Below, piece by piece: positions 8,389 to 35,695 of a DNA stretch of 64,000 nt. The position numbers and the translations under genes were made by a program. Where the stretch lies: positions 131,664-195,663 of the forward strand of contig JBGSXW010000005.1 in NCBI GenBank assembly GCA_041751215.1. The letters run 5' to 3'. The stretch's first letter is position 1. Each line of letters opens with the position of its first letter. Source of the stretch: Candidatus Saccharimonadales bacterium (lineage in GTDB: Bacteria > Patescibacteriota > Saccharimonadia > Saccharimonadales > JBGSXW01). The notes under the pieces were generated by a model. The model was not told the DNA's origin. It was given only the letters and a program-made list of their open reading frames with translations, and did no database searches.

Positions 8389-8985
8389 ATGACAAAATAC
8401 GTACTAAATTCTGGCGGCATCAGAAACAATCCAGAACTAAAGAAAAAGTTTCACCAAGAATTAGTTAAGGGCCTAAACAGTGGTCCAAGATTTGTTCTTT
8501 GTAACTTCGCCCAGGGCAGAGAGTACTGGGAAGAAAAATTCCAAGGATATTGCGACGCTATCCAGATCGACATGCCCGGAGGGGTTAATCCCTTGTTTGA
8601 ACTGGCAACCCCAGATACGTTTGTTGAGCAGTGTCAAAGTGCCGACGTTATATACATGCACGGCGGCGATAGTCATTTGTTGCAGTTTTGGATGAAGCAG
8701 TTTGACCTAAATGAGCTTTTTAAAGACAAGGTAGTGGCCGGAAACTCAGCCAGTTCAATGATGATAGCCGATTCATTCTGGACCTGCGATTGGCGAACCT
8801 GCGATAAGGGCTTCGGAATTTTACCGATAAAGTTCATCCCCCATTACAAATCAGTTTTTGGCGAAGATGATCCCCGTGGTCCTATCGATTGGGACAAAGC
8901 CTATCAAGAACTTCAAAACTACAGCGACAAGAGTCTGCCGATTTATGCCCTCAAAGAAGGCGACTTCGCTGTTTTTGAAACTTAA
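8389..8985 (+). CDS. peptidase S51 (dipeptidase E)-like / class I glutamine amidotransferase-like protein
   Basis: ADVIYMHGGDSHLL...VVAGNSASSMMIA resembles the S51 GGGNT...G-SAG arrangement. Motif-level only. Confidence 0.45.
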   Translation: MTKYVLNSGGIRNNPELKKKFHQELVKGLNSGPRFVLCNFAQGREYWEEKFQGYCDAIQIDMPGGVNPLFELATPDTFVEQCQSADVIYMHGGDSHLLQFWMKQFDLNELFKDKVVAGNSASSMMIADSFWTCDWRTCDKGFGILPIKFIPHYKSVFGEDDPRGPIDWDKAYQELQNYSDKSLPIYALKEGDFAVFET

Positions 8986-10079
8986 CTAAGTGCTTGCTTG
9001 TAAACTTCAAGGGTTTCTTTTACCATTTTCGACCAAGAATACTTTGATAGCTGTTTTTTGCCGTTCTTGATGAGTCGATCTCTAAGGGTTGTATCCTCTA
9101 GCACTTCACGAATCGAATTAGCGGTGTCGGCAACATTAGTTGGATCAAAGTAGTGAGCGGCCTCGCCATAGACTTCTGGGAGGCAGGTAGCGTGGCTGGA
9201 GACGACTGGCAAGCTGTGCTGCATGGCTTCGAGGCCGGGTAATCCAAAACCTTCGGACAGTGACGGAAACACATAAGCCTGTGCGTTTTTATACATCCAC
9301 TCTAGCTGAGCGTCACTTACAAAGCCAAGCAGCTCCACATTATCTAGACCTTCTGACTTAATGTGAGCTTCTAGTTGTTCGTAAAAAAAGTCCGGCTTGC
9401 CGGCCAATGCTAGCTTCAGATTAGGGGTAGTCTCTTTGAGAATGCGCATTGCCTCTGTTAGGTGTTTAAGGTTTTTGTAAGGAAAGGCGTTTCCAACATA
9501 CATAATGAAGCTCTGACCGTTAAGCTCATCAATAGGTTCATCTTTTTGCTTTGGATTAAGCTCGGCTGCCGCTTCGTAAGTTACGGTTACCTTGCTGTCT
9601 TTGACGCCCGTAAACCTCATTAGGTCTTTTTTAGAATACTGAGAGGGTGTAATTAAGTGCTTTGCGTGATGAGCAGTTAGCCAAAGCATCAATTTAAAAA
9701 ATGTTTGCCGGATAAAGTAGATGGCAGGATTGATATCAAGGTTTTTAAAATGAACCAAAGTTAGGTCGTGAACAGTGGTTACGCGTCGCCTCAAGTAGAG
9801 TATTGGCTGTTGTGGCATCGTAAAGTGCACGAGATCTGCTTTTTGCCGGTATAAAAACCAAGCAAACCCAAGCTGTTCGCTCGATCGGTATGGCTTATAT
9901 TTTACAGAGATACGCTTAAAGTTTGGCTGACTAGGCTCCCAGGAGGACTCATCACTGGGATTTACCACTACCGTATATTCAGTGTCTTTATCGGCTACCT
10001 CTAGCCCTTTTAAAAGTTCACGCATGTAGCGTCCTGTAGAGCCGCTAAGCGCCCGCGCATCAATAACAATTTTTGACAT
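8982..10079 (-). CDS. glycosyltransferase family 4 (GT-B, GT1 clan)
   Basis: C-terminal EGFGLPGLEAMQHSLPVVSS (the E-x7-E region typical of GT4). Confidence 0.8.
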   Translation of the reverse strand: MSKIVIDARALSGSTGRYMRELLKGLEVADKDTEYTVVVNPSDESSWEPSQPNFKRISVKYKPYRSSEQLGFAWFLYRQKADLVHFTMPQQPILYLRRRVTTVHDLTLVHFKNLDINPAIYFIRQTFFKLMLWLTAHHAKHLITPSQYSKKDLMRFTGVKDSKVTVTYEAAAELNPKQKDEPIDELNGQSFIMYVGNAFPYKNLKHLTEAMRILKETTPNLKLALAGKPDFFYEQLEAHIKSEGLDNVELLGFVSDAQLEWMYKNAQAYVFPSLSEGFGLPGLEAMQHSLPVVSSHATCLPEVYGEAAHYFDPTNVADTANSIREVLEDTTLRDRLIKNGKKQLSKYSWSKMVKETLEVYKQALS

Positions 10080-10109
10080 GAGCTTACTTTACAGTCTTTT
10101 CCCCTGTAT

Positions 10110-11180
10110 TTAAACTCGTTCGACTGCCGATATGGCTGCCTCAATCAGGCGCTTAGCCTTGTTCTGGTCGTTTGGATGGCTAAAATTATGCACTCCATAC
10201 ATAGCAATCCGATAGATTAAAATGATCTGAAATAACTTTTCGTGCTGTTTGTTTGGCTTAAACGCCGGTTGAGATTTGTAAAAATGATTAAGGTGGGGCC
10301 GAGCAGCTTCTAATATGTTTACGGAACGGTTAATAAAGGGAATAAGCGTCCTAGTTTGTTCTCGGCGCTGATGGACCTGCCAAAACAGCACCAAGGTTAA
10401 GATGTCGATTTCCGGAAACAAATACTCTGAGCGGTCGCCGTCGATAAACACATAGTTCCCGTCACTTTGTTCTATAACATTGCGATGAACTAAATCGCCG
10501 TGAATGGTCGACCAAATAAGCGATTGGCCGCTCCAGTGCTCAAGACGCTTACTCACCAGGGCGTCTAGCTTATTTGTGTACGGTCGGGCAGTTTCGGAGA
10601 TTTCTAACTCAGAAAAACGCTTGATAATTGCTTTTGGCGCAAACACGCGCTTCCTGCACTCGGCAGTGTAGAGGGGTGATATGGCGTCAATAATTTCATT
10701 GATGTGGCTGCCGCTAATGCCAGTTGCACGCAAAACTCCGCCCTCTATTAGGGTTTCGGTGCTGTAGTAAAAGGGTGGGCGAGCAACAAAGCGATGCGAA
10801 AACGGTCGTTGGATACTATGAGATTGACGAAGAAAGTCAGTGTTATTAGCTATTCTTTGGTTGCCGATATGATCAAGGCTTAAACGGTGAACTCGCTGGC
10901 GTTTTCGGTCAAAGACTATGACAATGTGGTCACTGACGTAAGGTGCTAGTCCCCGAAGCTGGCTAAAGCGCAAAAAGTAATTTCGCCAAGCTCTGGGCAC
11001 ATACCAGTAGCCATCGATCTGGTTGCCCATCAACACCACTTCTTTGTGGCTTCTCCAGATATGAAAGCGCCGCCTAAAGGTCGCCAATCGTCCTTCTGGC
11101 GGCAGCTCGGCTGCTAAAAAATCGTATTTAGTAAAATTCACGAAGACATTAATTCCTCCGCGGCGAGCACCTTGTGGCAC
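10110..11180 (-). CDS. protein-kinase-fold phosphotransferase (APH/choline-kinase-like)
   Basis: Brenner-type catalytic loop IHGDLVHRNV followed by FIDGDRS (metal-binding D). The GTG start is uncertain. Confidence 0.55.
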   Translation of the reverse strand: MPQGARRGGINVFVNFTKYDFLAAELPPEGRLATFRRRFHIWRSHKEVVLMGNQIDGYWYVPRAWRNYFLRFSQLRGLAPYVSDHIVIVFDRKRQRVHRLSLDHIGNQRIANNTDFLRQSHSIQRPFSHRFVARPPFYYSTETLIEGGVLRATGISGSHINEIIDAISPLYTAECRKRVFAPKAIIKRFSELEISETARPYTNKLDALVSKRLEHWSGQSLIWSTIHGDLVHRNVIEQSDGNYVFIDGDRSEYLFPEIDILTLVLFWQVHQRREQTRTLIPFINRSVNILEAARPHLNHFYKSQPAFKPNKQHEKLFQIILIYRIAMYGVHNFSHPNDQNKAKRLIEAAISAVERV

Positions 11181-11217: not shown

Positions 11218-12381
11218 CTATTCGAAGCTTTTAATCAATGACAGCATCTTTTTAGCCGACTTTTCCCAGGTCCACCGCTTAACGTTGGCTTGACCAGCTT
11301 TAATAAGGTCGTTTCGTTTGGATTCATGGGTCAGAAGATCGCGCATGGCTTCTTCTATGGCCAGAGGGTTATAAGGATTGACCAGCCTTGCGGCGTCTCC
11401 AGCCGTTGCAGGCATAGCGGTTGTGTTTGCTGTAATCACTGGTACTCCGGCGGACATGGCCTCTAGGATTGGCAGGCCAAAACCTTCGTAAATCGAAGGA
11501 AAAACAAAAACTGTTGCCCCAGCAAACAAGGCCGGTAAATCATCGTTAGCTACAAAGCCAGTCTTTATAACAGGGCTTCCGTTATCTTCGAGCAGTTTGA
11601 TTTGGCGGTTTATGTCTTCGTCTTTCCAGCCGGCGGCACCAGCCAAGACTAGTGGATATTGGCTTTTGAGACGGGCTGGCAGACGGCTATACGCTGCTAG
11701 CACTCCACCAATGTTTTTTCTGGGCTGCAGCGAACCAACAAATAAAATGTATCCCGGAGGTAGGTTATATTTACCGCGCACGGTTTTGATTTTTGCTGGC
11801 GCAATTTTTCCGTAATTTTGATCGACACCAAGTGGCACATGAGTAGCTTTGGTAACAATATTTCCATAGTGTTTAAGTATCGAGCTTGCGACAAACTCAG
11901 AGATCGTTAACGTCTGAGCGCCGGGTCGGCCTATCGAGTAAGGAACAAAGCGGGCAAGGTAGCGACGGTTTCGCTTTTCTACAACCTCTGGCATATCTTC
12001 GTGAACCAAATCACAGACCACCACAAGAGAAGGCGCGTTATTAATCAGCGGATAACTAACAAAATTAGGATAAATAACTAAATCTGGTTGCTGAGAGAGC
12101 CAACGATTAACGGCCAGAGGCCGAATCTTAAAGGCTAAGCTATAAAGCTTACGCGGAATAGGCAAAAATTCGTAGCTGACTCGTGCGCCTTTTAGTTCTT
12201 GACCGTGTTGTTTATCGCCCTTAAATCCTAGTATTACGTAATGATTAGACTTATCGGCTTTAATCGTCGCTTTAAGCAGTTCGTAGGTGTACTGCCCAAC
12301 ACCGTCTTTGGGGCGAAACAGCGGGGTTCCATCAACAAATATGCGCATACTTAGACCTGATCTTAACTTAGCTTGTTCCAC
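11218..12381 (-). CDS. glycosyltransferase family 4
   Basis: EGFGLPILEAMSAGVPVI. The start is either the GTG at 12381 (overlapping the upstream gene) or the ATG at 12348 (MRIFVDG). Confidence 0.8.
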   Translation of the reverse strand: MEQAKLRSGLSMRIFVDGTPLFRPKDGVGQYTYELLKATIKADKSNHYVILGFKGDKQHGQELKGARVSYEFLPIPRKLYSLAFKIRPLAVNRWLSQQPDLVIYPNFVSYPLINNAPSLVVVCDLVHEDMPEVVEKRNRRYLARFVPYSIGRPGAQTLTISEFVASSILKHYGNIVTKATHVPLGVDQNYGKIAPAKIKTVRGKYNLPPGYILFVGSLQPRKNIGGVLAAYSRLPARLKSQYPLVLAGAAGWKDEDINRQIKLLEDNGSPVIKTGFVANDDLPALFAGATVFVFPSIYEGFGLPILEAMSAGVPVITANTTAMPATAGDAARLVNPYNPLAIEEAMRDLLTHESKRNDLIKAGQANVKRWTWEKSAKKMLSLIKSFE

Positions 12382-13619
12382 TCAAGGCGTGGCTTAACAA
12401 TGGCTTCTCGTTTTGGGTCCCATTTTGGAGCACTTTCCGGCTCAGTGAGATTAAAGGCAACTTTGGCGGGAGTGTTTATTGGGTTTATTGTCCAGGTGTC
12501 TTTATAAATGTCGCAGTCCATGGCCAAGGTATAACGTCCAGCTTTGAGCATGTCGGTTGGCAGACTGACCCCGAGTTTGTTGACTCCAGGTACTAGCTTT
12601 GGCTGATGGTCCTTGCCCTTGTCGGTGTGAGAAGTCCTTAGGATGCGGCGATCTTGCTCGTCAAACAAACTAAGCCCAACAGACATAGCGTCAAACGGGC
12701 TCTCAATTTGTACTTCTAGCTCAGCTTTAACTTCATCGCCGAGTTTAATAGAAACAGCCTCGTTGGATTTTGATGAAGCCCCTTCGACTTTAAGTAGTTT
12801 TGGAATAATTCGATCATCTACTACAACTAAACTTTTATCAGCTTTCCAGAACGATCCTGCGACGCGCCCGCTCTCGCCCAGGTAAGTTTCTACTACCTTT
12901 TCGATGCCCTCAAACATCAGTTGCTTGCCGTCTTTGAGGTAGATTCCGGTATCGCATAGTTCGATTGCTGAGCCCATTGAGTGAGTAACAAAAAGTACTG
13001 AGCGCCCCTCAAAAGCGGCAGCCTTCATTTTTTCGGTAGCCTTTTTTCTAAATTTTACATCGCCGGCTGCTAGAGCCTCATCGATAATCATAATTTCCGC
13101 GTCAAGGTGAGCAGCGACGGAAAAGGCCAAGCGGCTACGCATACCAGAAGAATAATGTTTTACCGGATTGTCGATAAAGCCACCAACTTCAGAGAACTCT
13201 ACAATCTCGGTAAACTTGCGAGCAATTTCCGCCTTGCTCATACCCAGCAGCGCTCCGTTAAAAAAGACATTCTCGCGGCCAGTTAGTTCTTGGTGGAACC
13301 CGGTCCCAACTTCTAATAGACTGGCGGTCTTGCCTCTAATTATTGCTTGTCCGGTGGTTGGAGCAACAATGTGGGAGAGAATTTTGAGCAATGTTGATTT
13401 GCCGGCTCCGTTGCGACCGACTACTCCTAGTGTTTCGCCTTCGTGCACCTTAAAGTTGATGTCCTTGAGTGCCCAAAATTCTTCTTTGTGAGTAGCGGGC
13501 TCTCCGCGGCCAAGCAACGGGTTGCTCTTGAGAATATCTTTTAAGCTATCGGGCTTATTTTGACGCTTAACGATGTAGCGCTTACTAAGATTTTTAACTT
13601 CTATAACAGGCTTGCTCAT
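12363..13619 (-). CDS. polysaccharide ABC exporter ATP-binding protein (Wzt/TagH-like) with C-terminal extension
   Basis: Walker A GRNGAGKSTLLK, signature YSSGMRSRLAF, Walker B IIDEALAAGD. About 170 extra C-terminal residues follow the NBD. ATGA overlap with the permease gene. Confidence 0.8.
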   Translation of the reverse strand: MSKPVIEVKNLSKRYIVKRQNKPDSLKDILKSNPLLGRGEPATHKEEFWALKDINFKVHEGETLGVVGRNGAGKSTLLKILSHIVAPTTGQAIIRGKTASLLEVGTGFHQELTGRENVFFNGALLGMSKAEIARKFTEIVEFSEVGGFIDNPVKHYSSGMRSRLAFSVAAHLDAEIMIIDEALAAGDVKFRKKATEKMKAAAFEGRSVLFVTHSMGSAIELCDTGIYLKDGKQLMFEGIEKVVETYLGESGRVAGSFWKADKSLVVVDDRIIPKLLKVEGASSKSNEAVSIKLGDEVKAELEVQIESPFDAMSVGLSLFDEQDRRILRTSHTDKGKDHQPKLVPGVNKLGVSLPTDMLKAGRYTLAMDCDIYKDTWTINPINTPAKVAFNLTEPESAPKWDPKREAIVKPRLEWNKLS

Positions 13620-14476: not shown

Positions 14477-15454
14477 CTACGAACCCTTTGTAAGCAGTAA
14501 CATTGCCCAACGGTCGTATGAAGCAGCTTCAAGTTCAGCAAAATTAGCGACACCGATTAGATTGCCAGTTCCGTGCTCAATTACTTGAACCGAGCTAAAT
14601 GCGTCTTGTAGTTCTTTAAAGAAACCCTTGGCATCTTCGTAAGCATCGATTGTAAATTCTAGGAATAGACGCAGGTTAGGGCTGTTCTTTAGGACTTGCT
14701 CCATACCAGCAAACGCTTTGTCTTCAAAGCCTTCGACGTCGAGCTTCATTAGACCAACTTCTTTGATGTTTTGCTCCTTAGCGTACTGATCGATGGTTTT
14801 AACTTTGGCTTTAATTGTTTCCTCGACTTCGTATTCAATTCCGGTGTACTCGGCGAGGCGCTTCGAGTCGTTGATGCTCGAGCTGCACCACTGATCTTTG
14901 AGCAGGTTAAAAGTAATCGATCCTGGCTTATCACTGATTGCGGCTTGTTCAACGTGGTAGTGGTTAAACAATCCACTGACTTTAGCTGACTTATCGATTA
15001 GCGGAGTTAGATGCGGGTTTGGTTCAATAAAATGTACGGCGGCCTTAGTTTTTAAATCTAAGTCCGGAGCAGCGATTAATCCGTAATAGCCAAAGTTTGC
15101 ACCAACGTCCAGGACGACATCGTCTGGTCTGATTTGAGTTCGCCAAACTCCGGTAATCTCTTTTTCCCAGATACCCTCAAACATGATGTGAGGGCTAAAA
15201 GACGTGTCGCGGGTGTCTACGTACATTTTTTGACCAGTGAACAGACGCGTTAAAGCTTCGGTTTGACCAGTGTTAACGGTCATGCCGTTCTTAATCATGT
15301 CAACGTAAAAAGCTAGACTGTCTAACTTATCAACAACGTTTTGCAAGGCGCCACTATCGCTTCCAGCTCCTAAAGCGCTTAAGCGTTCTTCCGGTGTTAG
15401 TTCGATCTCGCCGTATTTCTTTTGAGCTTTTTTGTCGGACTTCTTAATATTCAC
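14477..15454 (-). CDS. FkbM-family SAM-dependent methyltransferase
   Basis: LDVGANFGYYG (SAM-binding loop) and MKLDVEGFE (FkbM signature). Confidence 0.7.
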   Translation of the reverse strand: MNIKKSDKKAQKKYGEIELTPEERLSALGAGSDSGALQNVVDKLDSLAFYVDMIKNGMTVNTGQTEALTRLFTGQKMYVDTRDTSFSPHIMFEGIWEKEITGVWRTQIRPDDVVLDVGANFGYYGLIAAPDLDLKTKAAVHFIEPNPHLTPLIDKSAKVSGLFNHYHVEQAAISDKPGSITFNLLKDQWCSSSINDSKRLAEYTGIEYEVEETIKAKVKTIDQYAKEQNIKEVGLMKLDVEGFEDKAFAGMEQVLKNSPNLRLFLEFTIDAYEDAKGFFKELQDAFSSVQVIEHGTGNLIGVANFAELEAASYDRWAMLLLTKGS

Positions 15455-15456
15455 GG

Positions 15457-16776
15457 CTACTTACCTATGCTTTCTAGGGCTTTGTTAAAGCGGGCCTCAA
15501 ATTTTTCTAGAGTAAATTTACTGACAACTTTATGACCCTTGGCTACCATGTCTTCTCGGAGCTTGGCGTCGTTTGCAACCTTAACAATTGCATCAGCGAT
15601 CTCCTTAGGATTGTAGGGGTCCTCAACATAGAAGGCAGCGTCGCCGCCAGCTTCGGGCAAGGCACCGCGGTTAGATGTAATTACCGGTAGGTCGTTGAGC
15701 ATGGCCTCGAATATCACCAAACCGATGCCTTCGTAAACCGAAGGAAAGACAAACATCATCGCGTTTTTAAACAGGGTGTACTTATCGGCTTCAGACACGT
15801 AACCAGTAAAACGAACATTGTTGCGAACCTCTGGACTCAGCGAACGAAACTTAGCTTCGATATCCTCAAAGCCGTAGCCCGGTCCACCAACTAACACGAG
15901 CGGCATGTTGATTTTGCTGGCAATCATCGAGTAGCCATCAAGCAAATTCTCGATGTTTTTACGCTTTTCTAAAGTAGAGGTAAAGAGCAAGTATCGCTTG
16001 GACCTTAGGTCCATATTCTGCAAAATTGAAGTTTGCGGTACATCCTTTGGCGGACTAGACGCGGTTCCATACAAAACGTGAACGTTAGCTTCTGGGTTAA
16101 CCTCTTTAATTTTGCCAGCAGTATCCTCGGAGTTTGCCATTAAGAGGTCAGAGTTTGTGACGGAAGAGTAAAATTGATGAGCGTAGCGGTTAGGCGTGTC
16201 GTTGTCTGGTGGTGCTTCAATTAATTCAAACGGCATAACGTCATGTACGAAGTGTGCCAGTTTGGCGCTGCCAACATCGCTCGATCTAATAACTGTTGGC
16301 GATGCACAAATTACCAAATCTATCTTGTGCTTTTTAACTAAGCGCTTAATTAGCATTCGAGAAGTTCGAACGTAGTTACGAACCAAGAACTGATAAAAGA
16401 ATGGAGAGCGAATGAAGAAGTTTAGCTGTTTCTCTAGGCCTGAACTTCCGGATAGATAGTCAGTGTTAACTTTAACCTCCTTAGTTTTAAAGAAATCAGT
16501 TCTTAAAATGGTCTTAGCGATGTTGCGACGGCTGTATCCGCCAGGAATGATGTAGCGGAAGCTGCTGCGACCCTCTCGCAAATAATGCTGTAAGTAGATG
16601 TGCTCGACTTTGTTGTTGATTTGAGCGGATTTTTCAAACGCTTGGCCATCAGGATAACCAACAAGGAGTCCGACTTCGTGACCTTCGGCCTCGGCAGCTT
16701 TTACTAAGCTTTTGAGAATAAAATTAATCCCGCGGGCTTTTTCTTCAATATCTGGCGAAACGAACAGTATTTTCAT
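15457..16776 (-). CDS. glycosyltransferase family 4
   Basis: EGIGLVIFEAMLNDLPVITS. Confidence 0.8.
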   Translation of the reverse strand: MKILFVSPDIEEKARGINFILKSLVKAAEAEGHEVGLLVGYPDGQAFEKSAQINNKVEHIYLQHYLREGRSSFRYIIPGGYSRRNIAKTILRTDFFKTKEVKVNTDYLSGSSGLEKQLNFFIRSPFFYQFLVRNYVRTSRMLIKRLVKKHKIDLVICASPTVIRSSDVGSAKLAHFVHDVMPFELIEAPPDNDTPNRYAHQFYSSVTNSDLLMANSEDTAGKIKEVNPEANVHVLYGTASSPPKDVPQTSILQNMDLRSKRYLLFTSTLEKRKNIENLLDGYSMIASKINMPLVLVGGPGYGFEDIEAKFRSLSPEVRNNVRFTGYVSEADKYTLFKNAMMFVFPSVYEGIGLVIFEAMLNDLPVITSNRGALPEAGGDAAFYVEDPYNPKEIADAIVKVANDAKLREDMVAKGHKVVSKFTLEKFEARFNKALESIGK

Positions 16777-16868
16777 TTAATCTCCGATTTGTAGCATTAG
16801 AGACATTATATATGATAGAAACCTGTTTACTAAGCTCCGAAGCTCTCATTTACTGCTAAAATTGAGAT

Positions 16869-19024: not shown

Positions 19025-19186
19025 CTACTTGGAGCAAGGTTTGATGATGTGACCGGAACATACACTGCGAATACAATGAGTGTATCCGGACTCGACACGC
19101 CTCACTAAGTGCCCTGTGTAAACAATAATAAGGGGCTGTACATACCAGATATATTGGCTAGCTTGTTAACGTATTTTTAATAGAGC

Positions 19187-24216: not shown

Positions 24217-24217
24217 G

Positions 24218-24751
24218 CTATTGGATATATATTGTCTCATTTTCTGACTTTTTTTCACCTACAACTGCTGCGACTTTCCATGTGCCAGAGGGCACATCAA
24301 CAGTTGGCTTCCAGGACCAAGTAGCTACACCTTGTTTATCGGTTATGATCTTGTCTAAGCTAATAACCCGGTTGGGGTCGGAATTACTCGTAAAAGTTAA
24401 ATGGCAGCTAACGCCGGGTTCGCTCGTACAAGTTGTGCTAACAATTTGACCAACTTTGAGCTTACTGGCTTGAGTGTGGCCGGCGGAAGTGTAGACCAAT
24501 GGTCGTTCCTTTACAAAATCTGGAGGACTTGAGATTTTACGAGTCTCGCGGTCCTCACCCTCGCCCTCGTCTATCAGAGGAGCGTCAGACGCAGGTGGTT
24601 GATCGTTATCTCTGGCAGTTTGCTGATTGTCTGCCTCAGCGGTTGATGTAGTTTCGGTCGAGACTTGATCATCTTTGAGCCACCAAAAAGTACCAGCACC
24701 AAGGGCCAGGGCGACAACGACTGCTACGATAATTAATTGTTTGCGTGACAT
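24218..24751 (-). CDS. hypothetical membrane-anchored protein
   Basis: N-terminal TM segment (LIIVAVVVALALGAGTFWWL), an acidic disordered linker and a small C-terminal beta-rich domain. Confidence 0.5.
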   Translation of the reverse strand: MSRKQLIIVAVVVALALGAGTFWWLKDDQVSTETTSTAEADNQQTARDNDQPPASDAPLIDEGEGEDRETRKISSPPDFVKERPLVYTSAGHTQASKLKVGQIVSTTCTSEPGVSCHLTFTSNSDPNRVISLDKIITDKQGVATWSWKPTVDVPSGTWKVAAVVGEKKSENETIYIQ

Positions 24752-24830
24752 ATGTTTATTTTAAAACTTAACCTCTTTGATCTTAACAATTAAAGCCAGA
24801 GCTTTCAAGAGAGCGGAGCTAAGAAACGTA

Positions 24831-25718: not shown

Positions 25719-25719
25719 T

Positions 25720-26541: not shown

Positions 26542-26565
26542 CCCGAAATTGTACTATAGTGATCG

Positions 26566-28344: not shown

Positions 28345-29379
28345 ATGATCGCTGTAATAAACGCGGGCGGATCAGGGTCGCGGCTGTGGCCACTATCAAC
28401 CCCGGAGTATCCAAAGCATCTTCTAAAGATTGGCAATAACGGGCACACGCTGATGCAAATGGCGTACGAGCGGGTTAAGGACTTTGCTGACGATGTCTAT
28501 GTTATTACCGAGCAAGGTCACGCCCATCACGTTACCGACCAGCTGCCGGACTTAGACAAAGATCACGTGATCATTGAGCCGGCTCGTCGCGGTACGGCTT
28601 CTTGCCTGTTAATCGCTCTCGACCATATAGGGGAGCGACACGCTGACGATGAGCCACTGGTGTTCATGCACGCCGATCACGTTATTCACGATGTCGATGG
28701 TTTTTGCAGCACGGTCTCTCATGCGGCTGATGTATCGGTTAGCGAATCCAGCATCGTTTTACTTGGAGTTGAACCGACCTACCCATCAATTGGCTTCGGC
28801 TACATTAAAAAGGGCGAACGAGTTAGTAAGAAAGATGAGCGCGAAGTTTTTGCGGTAAGTCAGTTTAAAGAAAAGCCTGATCGCACCGTGGCAGAAAAGT
28901 ATATTCGAGACGGACGTTATTTATGGAACATGGGCTATTTTGCCGCTCCACTTAAGGTTTTTGTCGACACAATGGAAAGCGATGCGCCCAGTCTTCATAA
29001 GGGTTACCACGCGCTTAAGAACTCTAGCGATAAAAAGGCGGCTTATTTAGGTCTCGACGATGACGCCATCGACTATGCACTGATTGAAAAGGCTCAAAAA
29101 TTATTGGTGGTGCCCGGAACCTTTGACTGGATGGACGTTGGAAACTTTCAGGATCTTCACACCGTGGCCAAGCATGACGACGACGGCAATGCAGTTAGTG
29201 GAAAGTTCGCAACCGAACAAGTCACCAACAGTTACTTGCACAATGATACCGATCAAAACGTAGCCGTAATTGGCCTAGACAACGTAGCCGTCGTTATGAC
29301 CGAACATGGTTTAGTCGTTACAAACCGAAACCATGCTCATAAAGTTGGCGACGTTAGCAAAAAACTCGGCAAGACTTAG
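28345..29379 (+). CDS. manC: mannose-1-phosphate guanylyltransferase
   Basis: N-terminal INAGGSGSRLWPLS nucleotidyltransferase motif. 344 aa with no cupin/PMI domain. Confidence 0.75.
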   Translation: MIAVINAGGSGSRLWPLSTPEYPKHLLKIGNNGHTLMQMAYERVKDFADDVYVITEQGHAHHVTDQLPDLDKDHVIIEPARRGTASCLLIALDHIGERHADDEPLVFMHADHVIHDVDGFCSTVSHAADVSVSESSIVLLGVEPTYPSIGFGYIKKGERVSKKDEREVFAVSQFKEKPDRTVAEKYIRDGRYLWNMGYFAAPLKVFVDTMESDAPSLHKGYHALKNSSDKKAAYLGLDDDAIDYALIEKAQKLLVVPGTFDWMDVGNFQDLHTVAKHDDDGNAVSGKFATEQVTNSYLHNDTDQNVAVIGLDNVAVVMTEHGLVVTNRNHAHKVGDVSKKLGKT

Positions 29380-29505: not shown

Positions 29506-30231
29506 TTACTGTCTAATTATTGCAAGTGGCTTATTGCGGATAACGTCGTTACCGGGGCCACCAATCATAACGTCGTAAGCACCGTAGTTACCACCATAAC
29601 TCCTGTTTGTATCTCCGCCCTTTAGTATGTCGTTACCGACGTTGCCGGCTATAATGTCGGAACCGTAACCACCGGTTAGCCTATCATTTCCGCGACCGCC
29701 ATGAATTGTTAAAGGGGACCAAGATTGCGAACCGTTAATTACGTCATCTCCTGGCCCACCATAGGCGTACGTGTGGTGTCCTCTGACCCCCCACTCTCCG
29801 GGCTTGATGTTGTCGTCTCCACTGCCACCCGACAAAACATCGTTTCCTCCTTGCCCGTGTATTACGTCATCACCGCTTCCACCGTAGATTTTGTCGTTAT
29901 CGTAAGAATGGTAAGTACCGCCCCAAGGTTCGAGTTGGCCATAGATCCTATCGTTTCCTCCTCGCCCATAAACAATGTCATCGTCACCTCGAGCAACGAT
30001 TAGGTTGTCGCCGTGTCCCGCACAAATGAAGTCACGTCCGGCAGTGCCGTTTATGCGCGAAGCATTACTAACTATTACGTTGTAACCACTTGGAGCTGTC
30101 CCGCATTCTGTTGCTATGCCAGCTTCAGCTTTCGGCAATCTACCTGCTACAGCAAGTGTAATTAGAGAACACACAACCGCTGTAAACACTATAGTAACTT
30201 TACCATTCACACTACTCGAAGAGCTGTTCAT
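29506..30231 (-). CDS. secreted protein with hemolysin-type (RTX-like) calcium-binding GGxGxD repeats
   Basis: N-terminal hydrophobic signal (VTIVFTAVVCSLITLAVAG...AEA), then repeated GGSGDDVIHGQGGNDVLSGGSGDD / GGPGDDVINGS / GGRGNDRLTGGYGSD. Confidence 0.6.
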   Translation of the reverse strand: MNSSSSSVNGKVTIVFTAVVCSLITLAVAGRLPKAEAGIATECGTAPSGYNVIVSNASRINGTAGRDFICAGHGDNLIVARGDDDIVYGRGGNDRIYGQLEPWGGTYHSYDNDKIYGGSGDDVIHGQGGNDVLSGGSGDDNIKPGEWGVRGHHTYAYGGPGDDVINGSQSWSPLTIHGGRGNDRLTGGYGSDIIAGNVGNDILKGGDTNRSYGGNYGAYDVMIGGPGNDVIRNKPLAIIRQ

Positions 30232-30293: not shown

Positions 30294-31721
30294 TTAGTCA
30301 AACGCCTCGACATTAACGCTAATATCAGACTTAAAGTCGATTTCTGAGTACTCATGAAGCAAGTCCGAGATGTAGTGCTTAAGTGAGTCGTACGCCTCTT
30401 GAGTCTTGGCTTCAAACTTAATAGTTAAGTACGGTCCATTCTGCGAGTAGCGAACCACAAACATTGCCGAAGGTAATTCTAGGCGAAGTCCGTCGCCCGC
30501 TCGCTCATCGTCAATAACTTCAGCGTCGGGATATTCGGCTCGCAGTTTTGGTGCCAGCTTCTCGATTATTGCGACTTTTTCGTCATCGGCACAAAAAACT
30601 TTAATTTCCGGGCTCGAAATGTATTGCGGCAAGGCAGCCACAGCTTCCGAAAGCGTTTGATCGGTGCGCGATAAGTACTGCAATAAACGGAGCGTAGAGT
30701 AGAGACCGTCGTCGTGATTATGAAAATCTTTTGAAAAGAAGAAGTGACCAGATAACTCGCCGATGAATGCACCTTTGACTTCTTGGTTCTTCTTTTTTAA
30801 GAAAGAGTGGCCGGTTCGCCACATAAATGGCTTGCCGCCTTCTTTATCGATGGTTTCGGGCACAGCTTTTGAACACAGAGTGTTGTACATAATTGTTGCG
30901 CCGGGATGATCCTTAAGAACATCACTAGCAAACATAGCAACCAACACATCGTTCCAAATGATACCGCCCTTTTCGTCTACCACACCAATGCGGTCGCCGT
31001 CGGCATCGTAGGTAAAGCCCAAGTCGGCCTTAGCTTCTAGAACCTCGTTGGCCACGCGCTGTGCGACCTTAGACTCGGTAGGATCGGCAGTGCCCAGAGG
31101 AAAGGTCGGATCAATTTCGGTATTGTATTCAACCACGTCGCAACCAGCGGCGCGCAGAAGATCAGGCGCTAGAGCGCCAGCAGTTGCACAGCTTGGGTCA
31201 ACCACAACTCTAAACTTTTTTGTTACCTTTAGGCGGCCAAGCAAGTCGTCAAAGTAAACCTGGCGGATGTCTTCTTCTTTGATGTTGCCGGGTTTTTCGC
31301 CTTGTTCGTAGTCTTCTTCTTCGACTAGACGACGCAACTCAACCATTCCGTCGGTTACCATGGTTTCAGAATATCCGTTGGCAAACTTGAAGCCGTTGTA
31401 CTGAGGCGGATTGTGCGAGGCACTAACATAAGCTCCACCTGGTCGCTTTAAGTGATACTGTGACCAATAAAAAGTCCCGACTAGCGTCATGCCAATATCA
31501 ACCACGTCGATTCCAGCCCAACTGAGGCCTTGAATTAAGTGCTTAGAGTACTCTGGGCCAGTGGCGCGAGAGTCGCGGCCAACCACAGCTTCAGTTATGC
31601 CGTTTCGTTTTAGATAAGTTCCAAAGGCTTTGCCCAAATGCTCAGCCAGTTCAGGGCTAAGCTCTTTGTCGACTAGGCCACGCAGGTCGTAACCGCGAAA
31701 TATGTGAGGGCTGACTTTCAT
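30294..31721 (-). CDS. manB: phosphomannomutase/phosphoglucomutase
   Basis: Active-site loop SASHNPPQYNGFK and metal loop TYDADGDRIG. Confidence 0.85.
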   Translation of the reverse strand: MKVSPHIFRGYDLRGLVDKELSPELAEHLGKAFGTYLKRNGITEAVVGRDSRATGPEYSKHLIQGLSWAGIDVVDIGMTLVGTFYWSQYHLKRPGGAYVSASHNPPQYNGFKFANGYSETMVTDGMVELRRLVEEEDYEQGEKPGNIKEEDIRQVYFDDLLGRLKVTKKFRVVVDPSCATAGALAPDLLRAAGCDVVEYNTEIDPTFPLGTADPTESKVAQRVANEVLEAKADLGFTYDADGDRIGVVDEKGGIIWNDVLVAMFASDVLKDHPGATIMYNTLCSKAVPETIDKEGGKPFMWRTGHSFLKKKNQEVKGAFIGELSGHFFFSKDFHNHDDGLYSTLRLLQYLSRTDQTLSEAVAALPQYISSPEIKVFCADDEKVAIIEKLAPKLRAEYPDAEVIDDERAGDGLRLELPSAMFVVRYSQNGPYLTIKFEAKTQEAYDSLKHYISDLLHEYSEIDFKSDISVNVEAFD

Positions 31722-32860
31722 TATTTCTCCTTGATTTTTACTTCTTTAACTTCGGCACCTAGGCGTTTTAGGAAGAGGGATAATTCATTAGCAAATCGCT
31801 CGTACCTAAAACCTTGAGCGTGCTCTACTAAGGTATCGGTATCAAAATCGTTATGATCAAAGTGCTTCAGTACCTCCATGAGTGATTCGGGAGATTGTTC
31901 ACTAAAGAACTGACCGGTTCGATCTTCTACTACCGTATCACGTGCTCCGCCCTGTCCGTAGGCAATGACCGGGCAGCCACCCGCCATAGCTTCAACTGGA
32001 ATGATGCCAAAATCTTCTTCCGATGGAAATATTAAGGCTTCGGCGCGGTGGATGTAGGCGGGTAGTTCTTTATCGCTGGCTTTTGCAAAAGTTATGGTTG
32101 GACCCGCCATTGCCTTGAGGTTTTCGTGCTCGCTGCCATCGCCAATTACAGTTAACTTAAGTCCTAGTTCAGAGCAGGCCTTAACGGCGAGATCAATTTT
32201 TTTATAAGGAACCTGCCTGCCAACTACAATAAAACCTTCGCGTTCTGGCGCTTTGGCCGGAAGCTTAAAACGCTCAACATCGACCGGCGGATGGATGACG
32301 GTTGACTCTCGCTTGTAGTACTTCTTGATTCTTTCCTCAACTACGCTTGAATTGGCAATAAAATGTCCAACTTTTTGAGCCTCTCGGAAATCAACTCGTT
32401 TTAAAACCCCAACTACCAGTGGTAACACTAAGCGCACCAGAGGATTTAAAAACCCAAACCCTGGATCGCGTTTGTACTGATCGTAATGGCTCCAGTAGTA
32501 ACGAATTGGCGTGTTGCAGTAGCAAACATGCAGTGCGCCTTGTCGAACACGAATATCTTTAGCCTCGGCCGTGGTCGAGCTGATAACTAAGTCGAAGTCT
32601 TTTAGGTCTAAGCTCCTAAACGCTAGCGGCCGCAATAGCGCAAACAACTGATGACGGTTTTTAAAAGGAAAGTATTGCAACCAGGTGGTTTTGACATCTA
32701 AACCTTTAAATTCTGGCATAGTTTCTGGCGTATGAACCGACGTATAAATGGGTGCGTCTGGAAACATTTTGTGCAGATCCAGCACAACCCGCTCAGCCCC
32801 TCCCATATTGGTCAGCCAATCATGAACGATTGCAACGCGCACGATAGGTTTACTCTGCAC
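31721..32860 (-). CDS. glycosyltransferase family 4
   Basis: GT-B architecture with C-terminal PSEEDFGIIPVEAMAGGCPVIA. Confidence 0.75.
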   Translation of the reverse strand: MQSKPIVRVAIVHDWLTNMGGAERVVLDLHKMFPDAPIYTSVHTPETMPEFKGLDVKTTWLQYFPFKNRHQLFALLRPLAFRSLDLKDFDLVISSTTAEAKDIRVRQGALHVCYCNTPIRYYWSHYDQYKRDPGFGFLNPLVRLVLPLVVGVLKRVDFREAQKVGHFIANSSVVEERIKKYYKRESTVIHPPVDVERFKLPAKAPEREGFIVVGRQVPYKKIDLAVKACSELGLKLTVIGDGSEHENLKAMAGPTITFAKASDKELPAYIHRAEALIFPSEEDFGIIPVEAMAGGCPVIAYGQGGARDTVVEDRTGQFFSEQSPESLMEVLKHFDHNDFDTDTLVEHAQGFRYERFANELSLFLKRLGAEVKEVKIKEK

Positions 32861-34322
32861 CTTTCTTGAACAAGACCACCGTAATAGTTCTGAGCACGAT
32901 TCTAATGTCTAGCCAAAAGCTCCAGTTCTGGACGTAGTAAAGATCGAGCCGAACTCGTTCTTCGTAGCTAAGGTCGCTGCGGCCAGACACTTGCCATAAT
33001 CCAGTCAGTCCGGACTTAACGCTTAGCACTAGGTTTGCACCGCCCTGTTCTTTGTAGTGGGCAAGTTCTTCCTCGACAACTGGCCTTGGCCCGACAACAC
33101 TTAAATCTCCGTGCAAAATATTAACGAGCTGGGGCAACTCATCTAAGCTAGTTGCACGCATAAACTTACCAATTGGCATAATGCGCGGATCGTTTTTTAC
33201 TTTTTGAGTGCGTTTAAATTCGTCAATTAGATCCTCGCGGCCCATTGCCCTAAATACATCTTCATCACTTTGTCCGCTGGCTTTGCTGCCGGTTGAGTAC
33301 TTCCAGTACATGCTACGCATCTTAACCGCGTAAAACGGCGTCCCAAAGCGAGTTAGGCGCTTGTGTCGGTAGAATACCGGTCCCTTAGGGTCGGTGATTT
33401 TAATAATCAGGCCAAAGATTGCAATGATTGGAACCGCCACAATAAGACCCAAAAAGGATCCAACTACATCAAATAAGCGCTTAACGATTCGGCCCCAGCC
33501 AATTAGCGGCGTTTCGTGCACCGAGATGATTGGGAAGCCATGAAACAGCTCGATGGTATTTTTGCCGGCGTAAAACTCATCTTGACCAGGTATAAATTTG
33601 TAAGCTAAATGTCCGGTTCGAGCAGCGCTCAAGACTCGTTCGTTTTTGCTCTGAACTTCGTAAAGACTAGTCTGAATAATAGTGTCGACTCCGAGTTTAG
33701 GTATGGCGGCCAGGGCTTCGGTTAAATCAGAATAGTGTTTGCCGGCAAAGTTTGCTGGCACGTTATCTTTGCTGGCTACGATTGCGGCAATGTTGTAGCC
33801 GCTGGTCCGAGTTTCAGACAAAGTACTAGCCAGGCTGCGCGTAGCATGAGTGCTACCAACGAGCATTACGGTCCTTACGCCGCGCCCGTATCTAAACATT
33901 CGCTTTCGTATTAGCCACATGGTGTTGCGCTCGAGCGCTAACAGCAAGAAGCTACCGACTAAGGCATATACCGCAACCAATCTAGCCGGAAAGATCTCGT
34001 CACCCCTAACAAAATCAACTCCGATTACCAGCAAGATTCCAATTAATGACCCAGCCGCTAAACGAGCTAGTTCTGAGAGGCGTTTCTCGAAAACTTCTTG
34101 TTTGTAGAGTCCGAGCATGGCGTGTACGAGCAGCCAAACCGGAACGATCCAAAGAATCATTTCAATGAACTCAACAGCAGGCACTTGGTTTATAAGCGGG
34201 CGGTTGTCGAATTTAACGCGCAGCGTATAGGCAACGGTGAATGCTGCGAGTAAAGCCACGAAGTCCGCGACGATGAGAAAAAATGCATAAAACATAAACA
34301 AATTTCGTATGTTAGTTATCAA
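32850..34322 (-). CDS. polyprenyl-phosphate sugar-phosphate transferase (WbaP-like initiating enzyme)
   Basis: N-terminal TM bundle plus the C-terminal bacterial sugar transferase domain (LDELPQLVNILHGDLSVVGPRP). Confidence 0.85.
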   Translation of the reverse strand: MITNIRNLFMFYAFFLIVADFVALLAAFTVAYTLRVKFDNRPLINQVPAVEFIEMILWIVPVWLLVHAMLGLYKQEVFEKRLSELARLAAGSLIGILLVIGVDFVRGDEIFPARLVAVYALVGSFLLLALERNTMWLIRKRMFRYGRGVRTVMLVGSTHATRSLASTLSETRTSGYNIAAIVASKDNVPANFAGKHYSDLTEALAAIPKLGVDTIIQTSLYEVQSKNERVLSAARTGHLAYKFIPGQDEFYAGKNTIELFHGFPIISVHETPLIGWGRIVKRLFDVVGSFLGLIVAVPIIAIFGLIIKITDPKGPVFYRHKRLTRFGTPFYAVKMRSMYWKYSTGSKASGQSDEDVFRAMGREDLIDEFKRTQKVKNDPRIMPIGKFMRATSLDELPQLVNILHGDLSVVGPRPVVEEELAHYKEQGGANLVLSVKSGLTGLWQVSGRSDLSYEERVRLDLYYVQNWSFWLDIRIVLRTITVVLFKKGAE

Positions 34323-34363
34323 ATTAGATCACTAACATCTGGAAAGTATTGTACCATTGAGAC

Positions 34364-35695
34364 ATGCAAATTCTCAGTCAGAAACGGCGATCAGACATAA
34401 GGCAAAGGCCTCTAGATTACGTTTTACTGGGAGCTTTCTTGTTTATTTTAGCCGTGCTGCCTTTTCATGCAGTTTTAACTAACTGGGCAGCTAGCAATTT
34501 TGGCGCCGAGCTACTGATTAAAGCCTGGAAAGAGTTAATACTTTTAATTAGCTTGCCATTACTGGTCATTGTTTTAGTGCGAGACAAGCCCTTAACTCGC
34601 AAACTGGTTAGTCGCGCAGTTAACAAGCTGATTATTGCCTTTGTGTTTCTGCACCTTGTTATCTACTTTTGGCAGACTCCCGATCCCGAAGCGGCCTTAG
34701 CCGGCTTTGCGTTTAACCTAAGATTCTTAGCTATGTTTTGCTTAGCACAGGTGTTAATAGAGAAGTTTAGGCCGGCCCGCCTACGCGCTACATCGCTGGC
34801 TACAGTGTTGATCTGCGCTTCGGTTGTCGCCGTATTTGGAGCGTTGCAAGTGTTTGTGCTGCCAAACGATATTCTTACTCACGTTGGCTACGGTTTTGAG
34901 CGCGGTGAGGTCAGGCCGTACATGACTATCGATGAAAACCCGGACTACGTTCGAATTAACTCGACACTTCGCGGGCCAAACCCGCTAGGAGCCTACATGG
35001 CGGCCATGCTTCTATTGGGCGCTGGATATCTTTTAGCGCGCAAGCAAAAAGTCGAGTGGTGGCACGTGGCTTTAGCTGCTGCTGGGTTTATTACGCTCTG
35101 GGCAAGTTACTCCAGAAGTGCGGCGGTTGGGCTGATTATAGGTGGATTTTTCTGTTTTACGGCCTGGGGCTTGGGGCGGGCAAGTTGGCGTCCTTGGGTG
35201 ATTCGGGGCTTCATTCTTGGCATATTGTTGATGCCAGTCGCATTTTTGGCTATCAAAGACACCAGCTTTTATGATCATGTAATACTTCATAACAATCGAC
35301 AGGACGGTCGGCCGAAAGATTCCAACTCGGTTCGGATTGATGCTTACACAACCAATCTAACCATCTTAAGAGACCGGCCATTTGGCCAGGGTCCGGGCAC
35401 TGCCGGCACAGCCTCGTTTCATAACAAACAGCAAACCCAGATTGCTGAAAATCACTACATTCAGATTGCACAAGAAGTTGGACTATTTGGGTTGGCAGTT
35501 TTTCTAGGAATTATTTCAGTTGTTGGCTGGATGCTGTGGCAAGGTCGCAGTGACCCAGTTCAACTCGGGCTACTAGGAGGATTGATCGCTACCTCAGTTG
35601 TGAGTCTATTCTTACATGGCTGGCAAGACGAGACACTAGCTATGACTTGGTGGGCCCTGGCTGGACTCTATGTTAAGGACTCGTTCCGTGACTGA
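34364..35695 (+). CDS. O-antigen ligase/polymerase-like (Wzy_C) polytopic membrane protein
   Basis: At least 10 predicted TM segments and a WASYSRSA motif in the loop region typical of the O-antigen ligase family. Confidence 0.6.
   Translation: MQILSQKRRSDIRQRPLDYVLLGAFLFILAVLPFHAVLTNWAASNFGAELLIKAWKELILLISLPLLVIVLVRDKPLTRKLVSRAVNKLIIAFVFLHLVIYFWQTPDPEAALAGFAFNLRFLAMFCLAQVLIEKFRPARLRATSLATVLICASVVAVFGALQVFVLPNDILTHVGYGFERGEVRPYMTIDENPDYVRINSTLRGPNPLGAYMAAMLLLGAGYLLARKQKVEWWHVALAAAGFITLWASYSRSAAVGLIIGGFFCFTAWGLGRASWRPWVIRGFILGILLMPVAFLAIKDTSFYDHVILHNNRQDGRPKDSNSVRIDAYTTNLTILRDRPFGQGPGTAGTASFHNKQQTQIAENHYIQIAQEVGLFGLAVFLGIISVVGWMLWQGRSDPVQLGLLGGLIATSVVSLFLHGWQDETLAMTWWALAGLYVKDSFRD

Follow-up and report, generated by a model that had tools for sequence, protein, structure and literature searches.

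In a 64-kb stretch of DNA from Candidatus Saccharimonadales (contig JBGSXW010000005.1; the whole stretch is called the window below), we identified an origin-proximal gene island that is predicted, with moderate confidence and from sequence comparison, to direct the synthesis of a sulfated, pyruvylated and methylated glycan which is finished in the cytoplasm and exported by the ATP-binding cassette (ABC) transporter Wzm/Wzt. All coordinates are positions within the window. The island had first been noted, in a sequence-only reading, as a locus at 8982-35695; this segment is fully coding without gaps, with 23 open reading frames (ORFs) in the ORF list. Functions were assigned by Pfam, NCBIfam and PDB sequence searches, with bit scores set against curated cutoffs, and in this annotation the modifying enzymes were not reassigned to other functions. 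The gene content given for 8982-35695 is largely real, but the functional unit probably reaches to 37897. We propose a unit of 28.9 kb (8982-37897) that adds a LexA-type helix-turn-helix (HTH) protein and a DASS-type symporter, because a candidate for sulfate import, the activation of sulfate as 3'-phosphoadenosine 5'-phosphosulfate (PAPS), its transfer, and the removal of 3'-phosphoadenosine 5'-phosphate (PAP) then all lie in one locus. The comparator loci L082, L085, L154 and L155 were found by exact-protein look-ups.

The genes of the predicted sulfation pathway and their candidate regulator are as follows, the three sulfotransferase-like (ST) paralogs being named ST_a, ST_b and ST_c; PGT stands for polyprenyl-phosphate hexose-1-phosphate transferase.

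26566-28326, plus strand: bifunctional ATP sulfurylase/adenosine 5'-phosphosulfate (APS) kinase, i.e. PAPS synthase; NF004040 923.5 bits against a cutoff of 669; PUA_2, ATP-sulfurylase and APS_kinase domains
25720-26541, minus strand: CysQ 3'(2'),5'-bisphosphate nucleotidase (PAP removal); TIGR01331 265.8 bits against a cutoff of 228.8; Inositol_P 180.6 bits
19187-20062, minus strand: ST_a; no Pfam or NCBIfam match; 42% identical to ST_c; all family motifs
21096-21968, minus strand: ST_b; 43% identical to ST_c; its sole Pfam match is sub-threshold and to the unrelated DUF1281_C (16.4 bits, E 0.0085)
24831-25718, minus strand: ST_c, the modelled member; Sulfotransfer_1 16.5 bits against a cutoff of 22
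36134-37897, minus strand: DASS/SLC13-type anion symporter with two TrkA_C domains; CitMHS 208.6 and Na_sulph_symp 49.2 bits; TIGR00785 148.9 bits, below its cutoff of 198.6
35670-36128, plus strand: LexA-type HTH protein, candidate regulator, conserved beside the PGT; LexA_DNA_bind 50.9 bits; 64% identity in L154, at the same position

CysQ, PAPS synthase and ST_c adjoin one another. The first two are transcribed divergently with 24 bp between their start codons, so that their promoters must overlap or lie within coding sequence. The DASS symporter, which is not found at the corresponding position in L154, is a candidate sulfate importer. Sulfate would enter through this adjacent symporter, PAPS would be made within the locus, the three ST paralogs would add sulfate from PAPS in the cytoplasm, and PAP would be removed by CysQ, the roles of the PAPS module being assigned by homology. 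PAPS synthase, CysQ and a 177-amino acid (aa) membrane-anchored protein were absent from the gene list of the sequence-only reading, and the symporter lies just outside its range. That reading had proposed a polymer with anionic and methyl decorations, a proposal that is now better supported because the locus holds a PAPS synthase, a PAP phosphatase and a likely sulfate importer. Homologs of the symporter with TrkA_C domains (~25% identity, 164-168 bits) also occur ~8-10 kb from an ST homolog in L015 and L019 (Paramylibacter, Rhodobacteraceae), a pairing that hints at a recurrent association of transporter and sulfotransferase.

The three sulfotransferase-like proteins of the sequence-only reading are real paralogs of ~290 aa with 42-43% identity, and motifs and structure agree with the label they were given. 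A word-indexed search of 5.8 billion protein clusters returned 47 relatives, none with a Pfam domain. The alignment A1 (43 sequences) was too diverse for pattern scanning, and the scan used the 9-sequence alignment A2. It found 80 loci in a genome collection (24-39% identity, other phyla, no Saccharibacteria representative) and 68 in metagenomes (all ≤36% identity over substantial matches, no close relatives); distant members belong to Saprospiraceae, Planctomycetota, Chlamydiota, Rhodobacteraceae and a Woesearchaeote. Family-wide motifs are GERxSGTNY, which is nearly invariant, FGWKH and RNPxxWLxS. The segment SGTNYL aligns to the PAPS-binding loop SGTNWL of SULT2A1, and in R84-N-P-x-x-W-L-x-S92 the spacing from Arg to Ser is that of 'RNAKDVAVS', the classical 3'-phosphate-binding motif of SULT enzymes. 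Matches of the family profile in the PDB were weak (E 0.06-2.6) and nearly all to sulfotransferases (SULT2A1, CurM ST, StaL), and weak Pfam matches to Sulfotransfer_3 and Sulfotransfer_1 occurred in 14 and 10 of the 43 aligned sequences, respectively. An AlphaFold (AF2) model of ST_c was of high quality (pLDDT 95.3, pTM 0.92), and 48 of its 50 top Foldseek matches in the PDB were PAPS sulfotransferases, with probabilities up to 1.0. Together, motifs, profile matches, structure and weak Pfam matches point to PAPS sulfotransferases. We regard the family of ST_a, ST_b and ST_c as a branch of the sulfotransferase fold that is divergent and lacks annotation, with presumed activity; such a family is missed by Pfam-based surveys.

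Export of the glycan and its further decoration involve the following genes.

12363-13619, minus strand: Wzt, ATPase of the ABC exporter, with a C-terminal extension of ~170 aa; ABC_tran 75.8 bits; 71% identity in L085
13616-14452, minus strand: Wzm, ABC-2 permease; ABC2_membrane 67.1 bits; six hydrophobic segments
10110-11180, minus strand: APH/choline-kinase-like kinase-fold protein; APH E 0.006 when searched alone, sub-threshold; 53% identical ortholog at the same position in L085
14477-15454, minus strand: FkbM methyltransferase (a); Methyltransf_21 55.5 bits; TIGR01444 79.3 bits against a cutoff of 37.7
20077-21033, minus strand: FkbM methyltransferase (b); Methyltransf_21 63.6 bits; TIGR01444 83.4 bits
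16869-17987 and 17984-19024, plus strand: tandem pair of polysaccharide pyruvyl transferases; PS_pyruv_trans 87.9 and 96.2 bits against a cutoff of 25.3

The Wzm/Wzt exporter named in the sequence-only reading was recovered by its ABC2_membrane and ABC_tran domains, and Wzt was closest in the PDB to Wzt of Aquifex (E 8.9e-57), followed by TagH/TarH and RfbE of Mycobacterium tuberculosis (Mtb). An ABC-transporter-dependent pathway, as proposed there, is borne out by the presence of Wzm/Wzt and of a polyprenyl-phosphate initiator (see below), while no Wzx flippase (MOP or Polysacc_synt match) was found in the 25 ORFs of 8982-37897. No hydrophobic segment was detected in any glycosyltransferase, ST, pyruvyl transferase, FkbM enzyme or the kinase, and the decorating enzymes are thus predicted to be cytoplasmic. 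Together with their cytoplasmic donors, i.e. PAPS, phosphoenolpyruvate (PEP), S-adenosylmethionine (SAM) and ATP, this fits a polymer completed before export, which is the hallmark of the ABC route. The chain would be completed in the cytoplasm, where these donors are available, with methyl groups from SAM added by the two FkbM enzymes and pyruvate ketals from PEP by the two pyruvyl transferases. Both enzyme pairs had been called in the sequence-only reading, and both calls hold, the former by Methyltransf_21 and TIGR01444, the latter by PS_pyruv_trans scores well above cutoff; against the CsaB equivalog model TIGR03609 the pyruvyl transferases scored 80.2 and 51.5 bits, below its cutoff of 213.1.

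Chain length in ABC-dependent systems can be set by capping: the kinase/methyltransferase WbdD caps the O9a chain of E. coli (PMC3482155), and a 2-O-methyl cap occurs on the S-layer glycan of Geobacillus (PMC2943079). By analogy with E. coli O8/O9a and the Geobacillus glycan, a terminal methyl and/or phosphate cap would stop elongation here, and the C-terminal extension of Wzt would recognise the cap and license export. The APH-like kinase may contribute phosphate from ATP. An exhaustive HMMER search returned 53 representatives of the kinase family, of which 32 sequences were used for the alignment and profile A5. In these 32 sequences H227-G-D-L-x-x-x-N234, D247 and D259 are invariant, and 27 of the 32 have a Pfam APH match. 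Against the PDB, the profile retrieved kinases only (TP53RK/Bud32 at E 2.9e-4, choline kinase at 3e-4, then RIO2 and APH). The kinase-fold protein of the sequence-only reading, sub-threshold when searched alone, was thus confirmed as having a kinase fold by family profile, invariant motifs and APH matches, and by analogy it may be a terminal glycan kinase. The extension of Wzt is conserved with the ST-bearing relatives L085 and L082 only and not with L155, as expected for a cap-specific module.

Initiation, chain extension, sugar supply and transfer to the acceptor are assigned to the following genes, where GT4 denotes glycosyltransferase family 4.

32850-34322, minus strand: WbaP-like PGT (initiator); Bac_transf 204.8 bits; TIGR03025 362.7 bits against a cutoff of 295.6; best PDB match WbaP, E 1.2e-47
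8982-10079, minus strand: GT4_a; Glycos_transf_1 121.9 bits; orthologs of 51-56% identity in L082 and L085
11218-12381, minus strand: GT4_b; Glycos_transf_1 113.4 bits; 47-60% identity in L082 and L085
15457-16776, minus strand: GT4_c; Glycos_transf_1 103.7 bits; 63% identity in L082
31721-32860, minus strand: GT4_d, part of a frame conserved among relatives; Glycos_transf_1 78.3 bits; 55% identity in L154, adjoining the PGT
28345-29379, plus strand: ManC-type sugar-1-phosphate nucleotidyltransferase without phosphomannose isomerase (PMI) domain; NTP_transferase 130.3 bits; TIGR01479 246 bits against a cutoff of 373
30294-31721, minus strand: phosphohexomutase of the phosphoglucomutase/phosphomannomutase (PGM/PMM) family; PGM_PMM domains I-IV; 79% identity in L154
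34364-35695, plus strand: Wzy_C polytopic membrane protein (ligase/oligosaccharyltransferase candidate); Wzy_C 52.3 bits against a cutoff of 31.7

By homology, the WbaP-like transferase would start the glycan on polyprenyl phosphate; its earlier identification is backed by Bac_transf, by a TIGR03025 score above cutoff and by WbaP itself in the PDB. The four cytoplasmic GT4 enzymes would be available for extension. The sequence-only reading had counted five, of which one has to be dropped: a fifth GT4 has no place among the 23 ORFs, and none was found when it was sought by ORF list and domain search. For the GDP-mannose supply by ManB/ManC postulated in the same reading, a ManC-type nucleotidyltransferase and a PGM/PMM mutase are present, but the mutase is not resolved among PGM, PMM and GlmM. 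The TIGR01479 match of the ManC-type protein spans model positions 1-345 of 467, that is the guanylyltransferase part only, and the protein is a probable GDP-mannose pyrophosphorylase. A mannose-rich chain fed by GDP-mannose from ManC and the mutase may be envisaged; the earlier claim of a mannose-containing polymer is weakened, as it hangs on the partial ManC match (246 bits) and the unresolved mutase. The protein described before as O-antigen-ligase-like has a Wzy_C domain above cutoff, ~10 hydrophobic segments and a long loop at 166-253.

Several observations weigh against the predicted sulfated, cytoplasmically completed glycan. None of ST_a, ST_b and ST_c reaches a curated Pfam or NCBIfam cutoff. 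The best Foldseek match of ST_c is marginal (E 6.6e-4; TM-score ~0.3). Homologs of PAPS synthase lie near an ST in only 3 of 90 longer loci. A 43%-identical ST stands alone, far from glycan or PAPS genes, at L083:7514-8395 and at L084:2734-3615, which indicates that the family also exists outside glycan loci and may be mobile. The C-terminal extension of Wzt matches Wzt_C with 19.4 bits (E 0.0011) against a cutoff of 30.4, and WbdD was not retrieved from the PDB by the kinase profile at E ≤ 1, so that a terminator role of the kinase rests on analogy. The mutase scores alike on the NCBIfam models for PgmG, archaeal GlmM and PMM/PGM, each time below cutoff, which bears on its identity as PMM. 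Finally, a search within 10 kb in L154 and L155 showed no homolog of Wzy_C, so that a link of this protein to the conserved frame is tentative. The lone ST of L084 adjoins a serine recombinase.

The lone copies also bear on what the STs modify. If they acted on tyrosines of secreted proteins, on a lipid or on a small molecule, the glycan would be methylated and pyruvylated only. Such a role would suit the solitary family members, the best structural matches (cytosolic small-molecule SULTs and the natural-product enzymes Teg12, Teg14 and StaL) and the secreted proteins encoded next to the ST genes. The latter, however, are secreted while the STs are predicted to be cytoplasmic. Moreover, in the window, L082 and L085 the STs are interleaved on the same strand with GT4, FkbM and Wzm/Wzt genes, and in other phyla a Wzt homolog lies within 10 kb of the ST family in 12 of the 90 longer loci. 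We therefore consider a substrate other than the glycan unlikely. A further alternative would have PAPS synthase and CysQ serve sulfur assimilation, the STs being P-loop proteins of other function and sulfation an artefact of adjacency. Sat/CysC and CysQ are assimilatory in many bacteria, and the ST scores below every curated cutoff as well as the low Foldseek TM-scores would be in keeping with this. It is nevertheless very improbable in our view, given that the sulfotransferase-type PAPS-binding motifs are conserved across the ST family, that nearly all its structural and profile matches are sulfotransferases, and that the same cassette of L082 holds canonical Sulfotransfer_2 genes, two ST copies being flanked there by two proteins above the Sulfotransfer_2 cutoff (24.5 and 23.2 bits against 22). 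Also, cysH, sir and cysK are absent from the 64-kb window, and Saccharibacteria generally lack amino-acid biosynthesis.

Next to the glycan genes, the island encodes secreted or membrane-anchored proteins.

22003-24258, minus strand: secreted 751-aa immunoglobulin (Ig)-repeat protein; AF2 pLDDT 90.2; N-terminal domain and three Ig-like repeats
24218-24751, minus strand: 177-aa protein (p177) with N-terminal anchor, overlapping the start of the repeat protein; hydrophobic segment 6-24; no Pfam or NCBIfam family
29506-30231, minus strand: RTX-repeat protein of 241 aa; HemolysinCabind 87.5 bits; hydrophobic segment 12-30; absent from L154 and L155

The repeat protein most likely begins at 24216; it would then comprise 737 aa, carry the signal-like segment MKRFLIFLLVAIIGVASLQL and overlap the p177 stop with its start. 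In the model, an alpha/beta N-terminal domain (~28-290) is followed by Ig-like beta-sandwich domains at 294-436, 442-584 and 590-736. The protein had zero sequence matches in the PDB, and domain-wise Pfam searches at E ≤ 1 gave only sub-threshold N_BRCA1_IG and NPCBM_assoc. Foldseek with the whole model returned tandem-Ig proteins only, the repeats swamping the result, which is uninformative on the N-terminal domain. This domain (~260 aa) is modelled with confidence, and the motifs K-E (in LQKEQSL) and YxYTPH are invariant in it; there was no Pfam or PDB-profile match, the best profile result being a chance match to MCM5 (E 1.5). The repeat protein has 980 homologs, and nearly all of those with a taxon name are Saccharibacteria/Saccharimonadales. 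In L154, an ortholog of p177 (36% identity) immediately precedes the gene for the repeat protein, and L155 has a protein of about the size of p177 there. A translationally coupled pair of an anchored ~175-aa and a ~740-aa Ig-repeat protein occurs in the glycan island of all four Saccharibacteria loci examined (window 22003-24751, L082:253-2031, L154:9444-12220, L155:9487-12142). The sequence-only reading had described the 751-aa repeat protein and the RTX protein as interleaved secreted proteins; both are present, but the former is a conserved member of the island rather than incidental.

Once exported, the finished polyanionic glycan would be transferred en bloc to an acceptor by the Wzy_C enzyme. 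The sequence-only reading had suggested a wall or lipid acceptor; judging by analogy, a secreted or surface protein (O-glycosylation, as by WsaB or PglL) is at least as likely and slightly preferred by us. Three points lead to this view, namely the S-layer precedent, the lack of an LCP-family ligase in the window, and the predicted glycosylation of pilins. Among well-studied monoderm systems, a WbaP-like initiator, Wzm/Wzt and a Wzy_C protein, there predicted to be an oligosaccharyl:protein transferase, are combined only in S-layer glycan clusters (PMC2943079), and for Saccharibacteria pilin O-glycosylation has been predicted but not tested, glycosylation in this group being called unexplored (PMC11623550). 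In its specific form, the product would be a protein-linked O-glycan that Wzy_C attaches to the Ig-repeat protein, to an S-layer-like protein or to type IV pilins. The gene set (WbaP-like transferase, Wzm/Wzt, methyltransferase, Wzy_C) is that of Geobacillus and Paenibacillus S-layer clusters (PMC2943079), and in each of the four loci the island includes both the Ig-repeat protein and its p177-type partner. Since Wzy_C does not adjoin the repeat protein in L154 and L155, no candidate acceptor is singled out, and the Wzy_C domain fits ligase, polymerase and oligosaccharyltransferase alike (a PDB sequence search gave chance matches only), we hold this specific form to be possible but somewhat doubtful. 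More speculative still, and improbable, is that the glycan is the Saccharibacterial equivalent of teichoic acid or a secondary wall polymer, with p177 and the Ig-repeat protein as its dedicated extracellular partner, either a new glycan-active enzyme or a wall anchor binding the polyanion through its Ig-like repeats. If so, lineage-specific exchange of the modifier cassette (here to sulfate) would serve to adjust how the cell attaches to its host bacterium, or to imitate sulfated glycans of the host.

Comparison of gene orders separates a conserved frame from variable genes. L154 reads LexA-HTH (64% identity), PGT (55%), GT4 (55%), an unrelated gene, PMM (79%), ManC, p186 and the repeat protein (44%), followed by UGDH, GT2, GT4 and a pyruvyl transferase. 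Set against this order, three insertions stand out in the window. Wzy_C lies between LexA-HTH and PGT, the RTX gene separates PMM from ManC, and PAPS synthase, CysQ and ST_c are placed between ManC and p177. The order in L155 is dnaA ... yidC, jag ... ManC (43%), p174, repeat protein (37%), RmlD, Wzm, Wzt (with Wzt_C), FkbM, methyltransferases and glycosyltransferases. Sulfation genes are found in neither L154 nor L155. L082 carries YidC, Jag, GT4_a, GT4_b, Wzt, Wzm, FkbM, GT4_c (63%), Sulfotransfer_2, ST, ST, Sulfotransfer_2 and a homolog of the repeat protein, and L085 carries Jag ... GT4_a, kinase (53%), GT4_b, Wzt (71%), Wzm and ST. As judged from these sequences, the frame LexA-HTH/PGT/GT4/PMM/ManC/p177/Ig-repeat protein is common to Saccharibacteria and surrounds a variable modifier cassette, of which the sulfation genes and other modifiers are a lineage-specific version.

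The left flank (2066-8377) holds recF, dnaN, dnaA and rnpA on the minus strand and yidC and jag on the plus strand, and the island thus adjoins the replication origin. In the relative L155, rpmH-rnpA-yidD-yidC-jag are contiguous and divergent from dnaA, so that the rnpA segment appears inverted in the window. Relatives of the window's DnaA with taxon names (64-67% identity) are Candidatus Saccharimonadales, one other entry being a hydrothermal-vent metagenome. Saccharibacteria (TM7) belong to the candidate phyla radiation (CPR) and are ultrasmall, host-dependent episymbionts with a genome of typically ~1 Mb. The monoderm host assumed in the sequence-only reading is supported by the DnaA taxonomy, and no lipid A (Lpx) or Kdo genes were found in the 64-kb window. 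This also concerns the idea that the island is a classical diderm lipopolysaccharide (LPS) O-antigen cluster, or a chimeric or misbinned assembly, for which the resemblance to the E. coli O9a polymannan cluster (PMC3482155) and the WaaL-like Wzy_C protein could be cited. We regard it as extremely unlikely: to the DnaA lineage and the lack of lipid A/Kdo genes are added jag/yidC-adjacent synteny in two other assemblies and the frame common to L154 and L155. The GC/GC3 content is 0.462/0.465 in the locus and 0.471/0.454 in the flanks (codon-frequency r = 0.93), so that the comparison proposed with the sequence-only reading gave no shift in GC, GC3 or codon usage. An independently assembled Logan contig was 100% identical over 13,306 bp, corresponding to window 14831-28136. 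Chimeric assembly, which that reading had named as a possible refutation, and horizontal transfer were rejected on composition, independent assembly and synteny with relatives. Scans of the window for tRNAs and with Rfam were both empty, giving no signature of a tRNA-flanked island.

The island resembles several known systems in part. It shares with E. coli O8/O9a (manC-manB-wzm-wzt-wbdD-wbdA/B/C) the GDP-mannose genes (probable ones here), GT4-type transferases, Wzm/Wzt with a C-terminal ATPase extension, and a kinase and methyltransferases beside wzt, the polymer there being completed in the cytoplasm (PMC3482155). It differs in its WbaP-like initiator in place of WecA, in having kinase and FkbM as separate genes without detected similarity to WbdD, their fused counterpart in O9a, in the added sulfation and pyruvylation, in a Wzt_C match below threshold, and in a monoderm-type CPR host without lipid A-core. 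Like the slg clusters of Geobacillus stearothermophilus NRS 2004/3a and Paenibacillus alvei (WsaP/WsfP, Wzm/Wzt, WsaB/WsfB), it combines a WbaP-like initiator, an ABC exporter and Wzy_C in the absence of an outer membrane; in these clusters a methyltransferase (WsaE) is the proposed chain terminator and nucleotide-sugar genes lie in the cluster, as here (PMC2943079). In contrast, slg clusters encode a rhamnan with rml genes instead of ManC/PMM and GT4 and are without sulfation, pyruvylation and PAPS supply, whereas no S-layer protein gene was identified in the island. Sulfotransferases inside a polysaccharide cluster with a priming transferase and several glycosyltransferases are also found in xss (synechan) of Synechocystis (PMC8205485). 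There, however, the route is Wzx/Wzy-dependent in a cyanobacterial diderm, rather than ABC-dependent in a CPR episymbiont lineage, and the sulfotransferases are recognised by Pfam, without PAPS synthase or CysQ in the cluster as described, while those of the island form an unannotated family. As with CsaB of Gram-positive secondary cell-wall polymers, PS_pyruv_trans enzymes would act on a lipid-linked wall-glycan precursor in a monoderm cytoplasm; unlike in CsaB systems there are two copies, both scoring below the CsaB cutoff, and no SLH-domain proteins were detected in the window. In rhizobia, NodPQ with NodH and LpsS of Sinorhizobium couple an extra PAPS-synthesis copy to a sulfotransferase acting on a surface or secreted glycoconjugate, as is predicted here. 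These modules differ in their sulfotransferase families, in their substrates (lipochitooligosaccharide or LPS) and in not forming a single ABC-dependent island.

Precedents therefore exist for this type of pathway, for the modifications and for PAPS-coupled sulfation of glycans. New are their combination in one ABC-dependent island with self-contained PAPS supply, the sulfotransferase-like and kinase families, both unannotated, the occurrence in a CPR episymbiont lineage, and the recognition that a glycan island near the origin is conserved but holds a variable cassette. If the genome is ~1 Mb, the ~29 kb devoted to one decorated glycan would represent roughly 3% of it. Sulfated glycans are considered rare in bacteria, and the island is a candidate locus outside cyanobacteria with a self-contained pathway for activating sulfate, recycling PAP and probably importing sulfate. 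Such loci are seldom described, as underlined by the synechan study, according to which sulfotransferase genes were otherwise unknown from bacterial exopolysaccharide (EPS) clusters and which regarded sulfated polysaccharides as a cyanobacterial speciality (PMC8205485). In the literature, nothing relevant was found on Saccharibacteria or Patescibacteria in connection with sulfotransferases, sulfated polysaccharides or O-antigen ligase. The frame with its variable cassette near oriC provides a concrete locus for surface variation and host recognition in episymbionts, an unexplored field (PMC11623550).

Beyond the island, the window encodes VanY (39132-39809) and a 677-aa Amidase_2 protein (39833-41866). 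Adjoining these, a 203-aa protein (41879-42490) combines a prepilin-type N-terminal methylation motif with a Gmad2 Ig-like domain. It could be a minor pilin or pseudopilin, and possibly a target of glycosylation. An 889-aa protein (47610-50279) with matches to DUF5907 and phage-tail repeats (PTR) coincides with the sole stretch of raised GC in the window (~0.53) and is followed by a secreted protein with a lamin-tail domain (50419-51795); the two may form a surface fibre or a phage-derived module. Further downstream, a 904-aa RND-superfamily transporter (52336-55050; ACR_tran 334 bits, with MMPL and SecDF_C matches) is encoded in this lineage presumed to be without an outer membrane.

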